A stretch of 64,000 bases of DNA, taken from the NCBI RefSeq assembly GCF_056746865.1, contig NZ_CM163382.1; one strand, given 5' to 3'. Below the pieces are notes generated by a model. The model did no database searches. It worked only from the letters and a program-made list of their open reading frames with translations, and had not been told where the DNA came from. Numbering within the stretch: position 1 is the stretch's first letter; each line of letters begins with the position of its first letter. Shown here piece after piece: positions 24,195 through 24,365 of this stretch. The translations under genes were made by a program, and so were the position numbers.

Positions 24195-24365
24195 CAGTTA
24201 ATATAGCGGAGGCGGCCTACGATTCGGGCGCAGACTTCCAGGCATGATAAGACGCGCCCGCGCCGCATCAGGCATCAGCGCATAACCGCCGGATGCGGCG
24301 TAAACGCCTTATCCGGCCTACAATTCGGGCATATTTTGTAGGCATGAAAAGACGCGTCAGCGTCG
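24195..24365. repeat. REP/BIME-type palindromic repeats
   Basis: Motifs gccggatgcggcgtaaacgccttatccggcctaca and gcatcaggc typical of E. coli REP elements. Confidence 0.7.

Follow-up and report, generated by a model that had tools for sequence, protein, structure and literature searches.

The three palindrome clusters in a 64,000-nucleotide stretch of Escherichia coli DNA (the window, by which we mean the whole stretch analysed) consist of ordinary E. coli REPs (palindromic units) grouped into BIMEs. Their linkage with variable junctions is best read as passive co-location, and their likely roles are the 3'-UTR functions described in the literature; we put the probability of this reading as a whole at about 90%. 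The presence and number of REPs are polymorphic at several spacers of the 64-kb stretch, which is known BIME behaviour, and the biology of all three sites is already known. Beyond annotation the importance of the result is small; that REPs and BIMEs sit at 3' ends, are polymorphic among strains in presence and in copy number, and are associated with variable intergenic regions has been described since the 1990s. The comparison of strains and species nevertheless provides a clean map of the variable spot between cueR and ybbJ, in which a zero-spacer junction is ancestral, five or more haplotypes are derived and the breakpoint in ybbJ is sharp.

Genomic setting

The window is a segment of E. coli chromosome that differs from strain 118UI (NZ_CP032515.1, 578927-642926) at 5 of 64,000 positions. 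Its first part holds the giant adhesin gene siiEA with type I secretion genes, and leads to cueR (20583-20990, + strand). After cueR come two small hypothetical genes (- strand), a YadA-like trimeric autotransporter and a 120-aa hypothetical gene (23821-24183, + strand), followed by ybbJ (24368-24826, - strand), qmcA, fetAB, cnoX, ybbO, tesA and ybbAP. Beyond ybbAP lie a short segment with a dinQ-like gene, mnmH/selU, the allantoin cluster, ybcF, and purK onwards. An earlier, sequence-only reading of the window had named the genes around the palindromes correctly: the autotransporter of the islet matches YadA_anchor (PF03895, 3.7e-12) in Pfam, and ybbJ, for which Pfam gives NfeD (8.2e-13), is so annotated in 118UI, as are ybbP and ybcF. 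That reading had also assigned the clusters to operon ends, and rightly so, as all three are flanked by convergent 3' ends (120-aa gene/ybbJ, ybbP/dinQ-like gene and ybcF/purK).

Two features define the region around the first cluster:

20991-24367, no strand: accessory segment, from the cueR stop to the ybbJ stop; missing in K-12-type genomes
24368-24826, - strand: ybbJ (NfeD family), whose 3' 28 nt are a diverged, REP-linked allele (by Pfam, translation and identity to K-12)

The accessory segment contains the two small hypothetical genes, the YadA-like trimeric autotransporter, the 120-aa gene and the REP array, and its GC content is 0.34-0.48 in parts, against 0.52-0.59 in the flanks.

REP identity of the three clusters

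REP/BIME-like palindromes had been proposed at the junction of the autotransporter islet with ybbJ (site 1), after ybbP (site 2) and after ybcF (site 3). They are real at all three places, with coordinates good to about 20 nt, and each site is made up of canonical E. coli REP units of the Y, Z1 or Z2 type arranged as BIMEs. Every unit was aligned to both the Y and the Z2 consensus as published by Nunvar 2010 (PMC2817692, Table 1), and six units match at 88-94% identity, with 30-35 matches over 34-38 positions. Stable stem-loops are likewise predicted, with hairpin energies from -11.6 to -21.3 kcal/mol. The z-scores of these hairpins lie between -3.4 and -7.3 for six of the seven units, the exception being the unit at 24238-24273, and a one-base internal bulge is found in all seven predicted folds. 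The GTAG foot is intact in five of the seven full units and degenerate in the other two, at 24238-24273 (CCAGG) and 54580-54613 (TTAAG).

With up to two mismatches allowed, the tail motif CTTATCMGGCCTAC has six matches in the 64-kb window where 0.32 would be expected; none of 100 shuffles reached six, and all the matches fall inside the three clusters. In 5425 of the 5426 complete E. coli genomes, a 271-nt query covering site 1 finds a median of at least 24 places per genome; for the site-2 query the median is at least 30. Since the units align to the Y/Z consensus and are not unique to this locus, their identity as REPs is upheld. The Rfam model naRNA4 (RF02564) also matches 24241-24318 on the - strand, scoring 71.9 bits where the gathering threshold is 59.5; as that model was built on a Y/Z2 REP pair of REP325, the match speaks for the sequence and structure of a REP pair and is not evidence of a nucleoid-associated RNA here. 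All units are extragenic between convergent genes, except for a 6-nt overlap of the unit at 24338-24373 with the end of ybbJ. The RefSeq record of K-12 lists no REP repeat_region features.

Anatomy of the array at the end of ybbJ

Site 1 (24213-24373) is a BIME-2-like array in which a partial Y tail is followed by Z2 (+), Y (-) and Z2 (+) units in alternating orientation:

24213-24219, no strand: partial REP tail GGCCTAC, a Y-unit remnant marking the array's distal edge; aligns weakly and in part with the Y consensus
24238-24273, + strand: Z2-type REP unit, head-first, with a degenerate head (CCAGG for GTAGG); 33/35 to Z2; -14.3 kcal/mol
24288-24321, - strand: Y-type REP unit; 32/34 to Y; hairpin -21.3 kcal/mol, z -4.98
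24338-24373, + strand: Z2-type REP unit with the GTAGG head intact; 34/36 to Z2; hairpin -11.6 kcal/mol, z -3.45

In the central Y unit, which falls in the region of the naRNA4 match, the head and tail motifs are both exact; its GTAGG head lies on the - strand, so that the + strand reads GCCGGATGCGGCG...CTTATCCGGCCTAC. The headless unit at 24238-24273 has a z-score of only -0.76 and folds no better than its shuffles. Direct repeats spaced by ~100 nt run through the array. One of them, D2, joins 24213-24229 to 24314-24330 (94% identical, spacing 101 nt), and its left copy, a 17-nt sequence CGGCCTACGATTCGGGC, includes the GGCCTAC tail; the other, D1, pairs the 24238-24273 unit with 24340-24373 at 88% identity.

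The terminal unit lies on the end of ybbJ. The ybbJ stop codon (24368-24370) is inside the unit at 24338-24373, and the end of the cluster as previously given, 24365, falls 8 nt short of the end of that unit. In the ybbJ mRNA the REP head, GCC-UGA, forms the last sense codon and the stop. The same unit holds a weak terminator-like T-run (24351-24369, - strand), in which an inner stem is followed by TTTTCAT. The run is due to a lineage-specific change of GATAAG to GAAAAG (A-to-T), and the other REP units lack a T-run.

The clusters after ybbP and ybcF

Site 2 (32814-32911) is a BIME-1 with the following parts:

32814-32842, - strand: short-stem Z1-type REP unit; exact tail motif; -13.2 kcal/mol, z -4.34; gapped alignment 28/37 to Z2
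32853-32865, - strand: IHF-consensus site AATCAATATATTG (WATCAANNNNTTR), an exact match, within the site-2 linker
32878-32911, + strand: Y-type REP unit, head-first; 32/35 to Y; -15.1 kcal/mol, z -3.41

The first unit begins 16 nt past the ybbP stop (32795-32797). Only two matches to the IHF consensus WATCAANNNNTTR exist in the entire window, counting both strands, and one of them is this linker, which is also matched above the gathering score by the Rfam model of the ES036 (CssrF) sRNA (32835-32877). The Y unit is near-identical to the REP that was crystallised with TnpA-REP (PMC3479197). Homology between the window and K-12 ends immediately past the ybbP stop. From there the window carries 600 nt (32801-33399) containing the BIME-1 and a type I toxin module of the dinQ/agrB kind, with the dinQ-like toxin gene and an AgrB-like antisense RNA; K-12 and strain 7/2 have a 7.3-kb RhsD element instead, with no REP at the ybbP end. 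The arrangement without the Rhs element is common to 1311 genomes. K-12 has a BIME-1 of its own between glxK and allE, which is 80% identical to site 2 and is missing from the window.

Site 3 (54527-54613), between ybcF and purK, consists of two full units and a remnant:

54508-54520: remnant GTAGGCAT
54527-54563, - strand: Z2-type REP unit; 35/38 to Z2; -21.3 kcal/mol, z -7.34
54580-54613, + strand: Y-type REP unit with a degenerate head (TTAAG for GTAGG); 30/34 to Y; -17.0 kcal/mol, z -4.02

The Z2 unit begins 21 nt past the ybcF stop (54503-54505) and the Y unit ends 18 nt short of the purK stop (54632-54634). K-12 has the same cluster here, with an intact GTAGG head and one extra 70-nt unit. 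The proposal that the clusters mark insertion junctions therefore fits site 1, at the end of the accessory segment, and site 2, in the segment that RhsD replaces, but not site 3, where the polymorphism is one of copy number only.

The cueR/ybbJ junction among E. coli strains

K-12 MG1655 is free of the islet, and its junction has no REP: the cueR stop (TGA) is directly followed by the ybbJ stop (TTA on the + strand), with 0 nt between the two. This K-12-type empty junction, at 99% identity or more, is found in 3205 of 5426 E. coli genomes (~59%). An intact terminal REP together with the window-type end of ybbJ is present in 1412 genomes, while ~800 further genomes have a Nissle-type junction, in which the terminal REP has suffered an internal deletion; the complete window-type junction is carried by 483.

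All of the non-empty haplotypes examined have a REP on the ybbJ stop, with the YadA-like islet, a 407-aa gene or a deletion scar beside it. The sequences read in this respect were those of the window, Nissle, ST131, an O157-like strain, STN0717-11, 2012C-4221 and the GTDB E. coli representative. Read base by base, the window and STN0717-11 both have the YadA-like islet and three full REP units. The O157-like strain shares the layout of the window, with different linkers, and 2012C-4221 corresponds to the window minus one 101-nt unit, which was lost between the D2 repeats at 24213-24229 and 24314-24330. The array thus changes in size by steps of ~100 nt through its internal direct repeats. Nissle 1917 and ST131 have a wholly different neighbour, the 407-aa gene, which has no Pfam match, followed by a Y unit and a degenerate Z2 unit on the ybbJ stop. 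The GTDB representative (L025) has lost the islet through a deletion that begins in the last cueR codons and reaches the 3' end of the 120-aa gene. Two REPs and a scar were left behind, and the C-terminus of CueR was altered.

Homology between K-12 and the window breaks sharply at 24395/24396, within ybbJ. The last 28 nt of the gene (24368-24395) have 15/28 identity to K-12, and identity is 97-100% beyond. At the protein level, YbbJ ends in ...TLIIRAVIA* in the window, ...TLHIRAVSS* in K-12 and TLIIKAVSH* in Citrobacter. The REP array had been said to sit exactly at the boundary of a putative acquired islet. It does form the ybbJ-proximal end of the accessory segment, but the K-12 breakpoint lies 22 nt beyond the REP. 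At the other end of the islet the junction has no REP, and 3 nt separate the cueR stop from the next gene.

We also considered whether 24374-24395 might be a BIME linker and half of a Y-REP, to which 16 of 19 columns could be matched by hand alignment. This was rejected, as the stretch codes in frame for T-L-I-I-R-A-V. Because the in-frame TLIIRAV resembles the TLIIKAV of Citrobacter, and the corresponding residues of other genera, we take 24374-24395 to be genuine ybbJ coding sequence.

Ancestry of the junction

A degenerate-pattern scan of species-representative genomes yielded 79 ybbJ loci, and cueR could be placed in 66 of them. The cueR and ybbJ stops abut or overlap (gap -47 to +3 nt) in 45 of these 66 Enterobacteriaceae species loci, among them those of Salmonella enterica arizonae, Enterobacter, Kluyvera, Kosakonia, Trabulsiella, Pseudescherichia, Lelliottia and Yokenella. 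In all seven abutting outgroup junctions whose sequence was read, REP is absent, and a crude count of GTAGG/CCTAC pentamers in the 250 nt downstream of ybbJ gave zero in 39 of the 45 loci and 1-2 in the other 6. In Citrobacter and a few further genera, cueR/ybbJ holds an unrelated ~2.85-kb insert. Since abutting stops are common to the outgroup species, the arrangement of K-12 is ancestral and the junction has been invaded repeatedly; judged from these sequences, abutting cueR and ybbJ genes with no REP are the ancestral state. The converse view, that the K-12 junction is a secondary deletion of the islet, was rejected on two counts: abutting stops are found in 45 other Enterobacteriaceae species, and a true islet deletion, that of L025, leaves a REP pair, a scar and an altered CueR C-terminus.

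Within the genus, ybbJ ends in ...AVIA-TGA inside a REP in E. albertii, E. whittamii, Escherichia sp. E1V33 and Escherichia sp. MOD1-EC7003, the terminal REP being degenerate in the first two. The number of REP units at the ybbJ locus ranges from 1 to 8 across strains and species; in the scan of the four Escherichia species this figure of 1-8 counts intact units beyond the terminal one. The cargo differs by species: E. albertii has that of the Nissle type, and E. whittamii the window-type 120-aa gene. Because the REP-on-stop allele is shared with other Escherichia beside varying cargo, we infer that it is old and linked to ybbJ rather than to the cargo. The empty allele, present in E. coli, was not found in single representatives of the four other Escherichia species, and its distribution needs either an old polymorphism or a later transfer of alleles. 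The suggestion that the array is a conserved downstream element finds support only among the non-empty haplotypes, across three neighbours and four other Escherichia species; the empty junctions have no REP.

Proposed explanation and its alternatives

The array at site 1 is fixed on the ybbJ stop codon; different cargos are found at its side, and other Escherichia species have it too. In the proposed explanation, it forms the ybbJ-proximal end of accessory DNA inserted into the ancestral zero-spacer junction of cueR and ybbJ. It would lie in the 3' end of the qmcA-ybbJ mRNA and in the convergent transcript of the 120-aa gene, where, going by published REP biology, its hairpins may act as 3'-UTR elements, blocking 3'-5' exonucleases and giving partial Rho-dependent termination. 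REPs have been described as 3'-UTR stabilisers and partial Rho-dependent terminators; when they lie between two convergent genes, their presence is correlated with raised expression of both, and their locations vary by strain (bioRxiv 10.64898/2026.03.23.713779). IHF binding is known for BIME-1 and gyrase binding for BIME-2 (PMC2817692). That REPs and accessory DNA occur together is probably a result of both accumulating in dispensable spacers between convergent 3' ends. REP arrays are also unstable in themselves.

The position of the terminal unit may also affect ybbJ itself. A REP that lies less than 16 nt away from a stop codon causes terminating ribosomes to stall and lowers translation (Liang, Rudd & Deutscher 2015, summarised in PMC12306157). 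Because the ybbJ REP begins inside the last codon, the REP-type allele is predicted to produce less YbbJ than that of K-12. At the three other genes the distance between REP and stop codon falls outside this rule (ybbP, 16 nt; ybcF, 21 nt; purK, 18 nt).

The array could instead have been a recombination target, such that the islet and the alternative cargos were integrated or exchanged via a pre-existing BIME next to ybbJ, whether by REP-REP homologous recombination or by REP-targeting elements. Unrelated cargos (the YadA-like islet and the 407-aa gene) do start directly distal to the same ybbJ-linked BIME, the array is common to other Escherichia species with either type of cargo, and its changes in unit number via internal direct repeats show that it recombines; REPs are, moreover, targets of IS elements and a source of intergenic polymorphism, to judge from the titles of Tobes & Pareja 2006, Bachellier 1997 and Clement 1999 as cited in PMC2817692. 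Such an origin nonetheless seems unlikely to us. The cueR-side junction of the islet is without a REP, the sole clear secondary deletion (L025) ends in cueR and the 120-aa gene and not in a REP, and the genes annotated in the segment, which encode three hypothetical proteins and the YadA-like protein, include no transposase or integrase. Homology with the empty allele breaks within ybbJ, 22 nt from the REP, as is in keeping with homologous recombination through the flanking genes and not with an integration mediated by REPs. A possible if somewhat doubtful alternative is that the array came as a passenger of acquired DNA, as the 3' flank of a donor's ybbJ or of the cargo genes. This overlaps with the explanation that we prefer and differs from it in the order of events only. 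In its favour, the REP shows tight linkage to a diverged 3' end of ybbJ (15/28 to K-12) common to E. albertii and other Escherichia, which suggests that the tail of ybbJ, the REP and the cargo were passed down or transferred together, as a single block; the array is, moreover, missing whenever the cargo is wholly absent. However, the same REP and ybbJ tail stand beside unrelated cargos and stay after the cargo deletion in L025, and this persistence ties the REP to ybbJ and not to a particular cargo.

Under a further reading, which we regard as unlikely, the REP array on the ybbJ stop would be an old, genus-wide feature of Escherichia that supplies the last codon and the stop; it would define a second 3' allele of ybbJ, probably with lower translation, which has coexisted with the ancestral allele lacking the REP as a long-lived, cross-species polymorphism, and the array would be a fixed anchor for the swapping of cargo. 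If true, this would make cueR/ybbJ a small REP-anchored integration hotspot. The idea that the palindromes are gene-specific intrinsic terminators, or chance GC-rich hairpins outside any repeat family, can draw on the terminator-like score of 24351-24369 (- strand) and on the unit at 24238-24273, which is indistinguishable from its shuffles in folding. We rejected it, that one weak terminator-like site aside, and give it next to no credence: identity to the Y/Z2 consensus is high, there are dozens of copies per genome, the naRNA4 model matches, the tail motif is enriched (6 against 0.32 expected), and the T-run is missing from most units.

Comparison with known REP systems

Site 1 resembles BIME-2 arrays such as REP325/naRNA4 and the BIMEs flanking the RAYT gene yafM. 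Like them, it is built of imperfect palindromes of 34-37 nt that have a GTAG(G) head and match the consensus at 88-94% identity, with Y and Z2 units in alternating orientation and short linkers, and it shows a strain-variable number of units and a position between convergent 3' ends. It differs from them in that its terminal unit overlaps the ybbJ stop by 6 nt and is thus not strictly extragenic, in that one unit is without a GTAG head, and in having three full units compared with the 12 of REP325.

Site 2 classes with the BIME-1 (RIB/RIP) elements: a short-stem Z1 unit is separated from an inverse Y unit by a ~35-nt linker that contains an exact WATCAANNNNTTR IHF consensus, and, like them, the site stands at the 3' end of a transcription unit (ybbP). 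K-12 does not have this copy at the corresponding position, where the RhsD element replaces the whole segment.

The clusters also share features with REPINs mobilised by RAYT/TnpA-REP, as inverted REP doublets with GTAG heads are the kind that E. coli TnpA-REP recognises and cleaves in vitro (PMC3479197). In contrast to mobilised REPINs, the window has no annotated RAYT gene and the three loci show no evidence of recent transposition and no target-site signature; the polymorphism here consists of the gain and loss of units, together with linkage to large indels.

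Variable DNA on both sides of cueR

Upstream of cueR, the window carries a large block of adhesin and secretion genes:

17-20586, siiEA giant adhesin with its type I secretion genes for an ABC transporter and HlyD

The stop of the HlyD gene overlaps the cueR start, whereas in K-12 this place is taken by glsA-ybaT (L002, the K-12 locus, 6642-8993). Homology between K-12 and the window begins only at window 20487, ~96 nt upstream of cueR, in a stretch annotated in Nissle as a truncated pseudogene, and cueR itself is only 94% identical between the two. Variable DNA thus borders cueR to its left and to its right.

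The cueR-ybbJ junction is also occupied beyond E. coli. Citrobacter and some other genera carry an unrelated insert of ~2.85 kb there (L011, L020 and L023, with further Citrobacter, Kosakonia and Phytobacter loci), whose first gene lies on the same strand and encodes a product that begins MVRKTPLA and whose N-terminus resembles a signal peptide. Different genera have thus seen independent invasions of this junction.

The islet and its deletion in L025

At 21670-23820 in the window's islet, the YadA-like gene is annotated as 21670-22719 (350 aa), its unbroken ORF extending to 23472 (600 aa, TTG start), and the ~1.1 kb at 22720-23820 has no annotated gene. Its length and annotation differ among strains (1017-1050 nt called), and it could represent a passenger domain that is degraded or mis-started. 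In the GTDB representative of E. coli (SCPM-O-B-8794, L025), a deletion downstream of ybbJ has fused the 120-aa gene's 3' end with that of cueR, so that the CueR C-terminus reads ...CCHHKAECLKTYPDEAQKT rather than ...CCHHRAG, each followed by a stop, and the cueR-ybbJ spacer is reduced to two REPs and 112 nt.

Other spacers

Two further intergenic regions of the window contain short elements:

27336-27361, short perfect palindrome GCCGGATGCGCAGCATCGCATCCGGC between convergent fetB and cnoX
46334-46427, Rfam match to STnc480 sRNA between glxK and allE (84.9 bits)

The outer stem of a Y REP (GCCGGATGCG) recurs exactly in the arms of the fetB-cnoX palindrome, which lacks the GTAG head and inner stem and may be either a mini-hairpin related to REPs or a terminator. 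The glxK-allE spacer of K-12 contains a ~100-nt BIME-1 (L002 38084-38187), which the window lacks.

The 600-nt ybbP-mnmH segment of the window, whose place is occupied in K-12 by the RhsD element, includes two features:

33015-33092, minus strand, dinQ-like type I toxin ORF (dinQ in the 118UI annotation)
33252-33340, plus strand, Rfam match to AgrB antisense RNA (53.6 bits; gathering score 40)

This Rhs-less arrangement is common to 1311 of the 5426 complete E. coli genomes.
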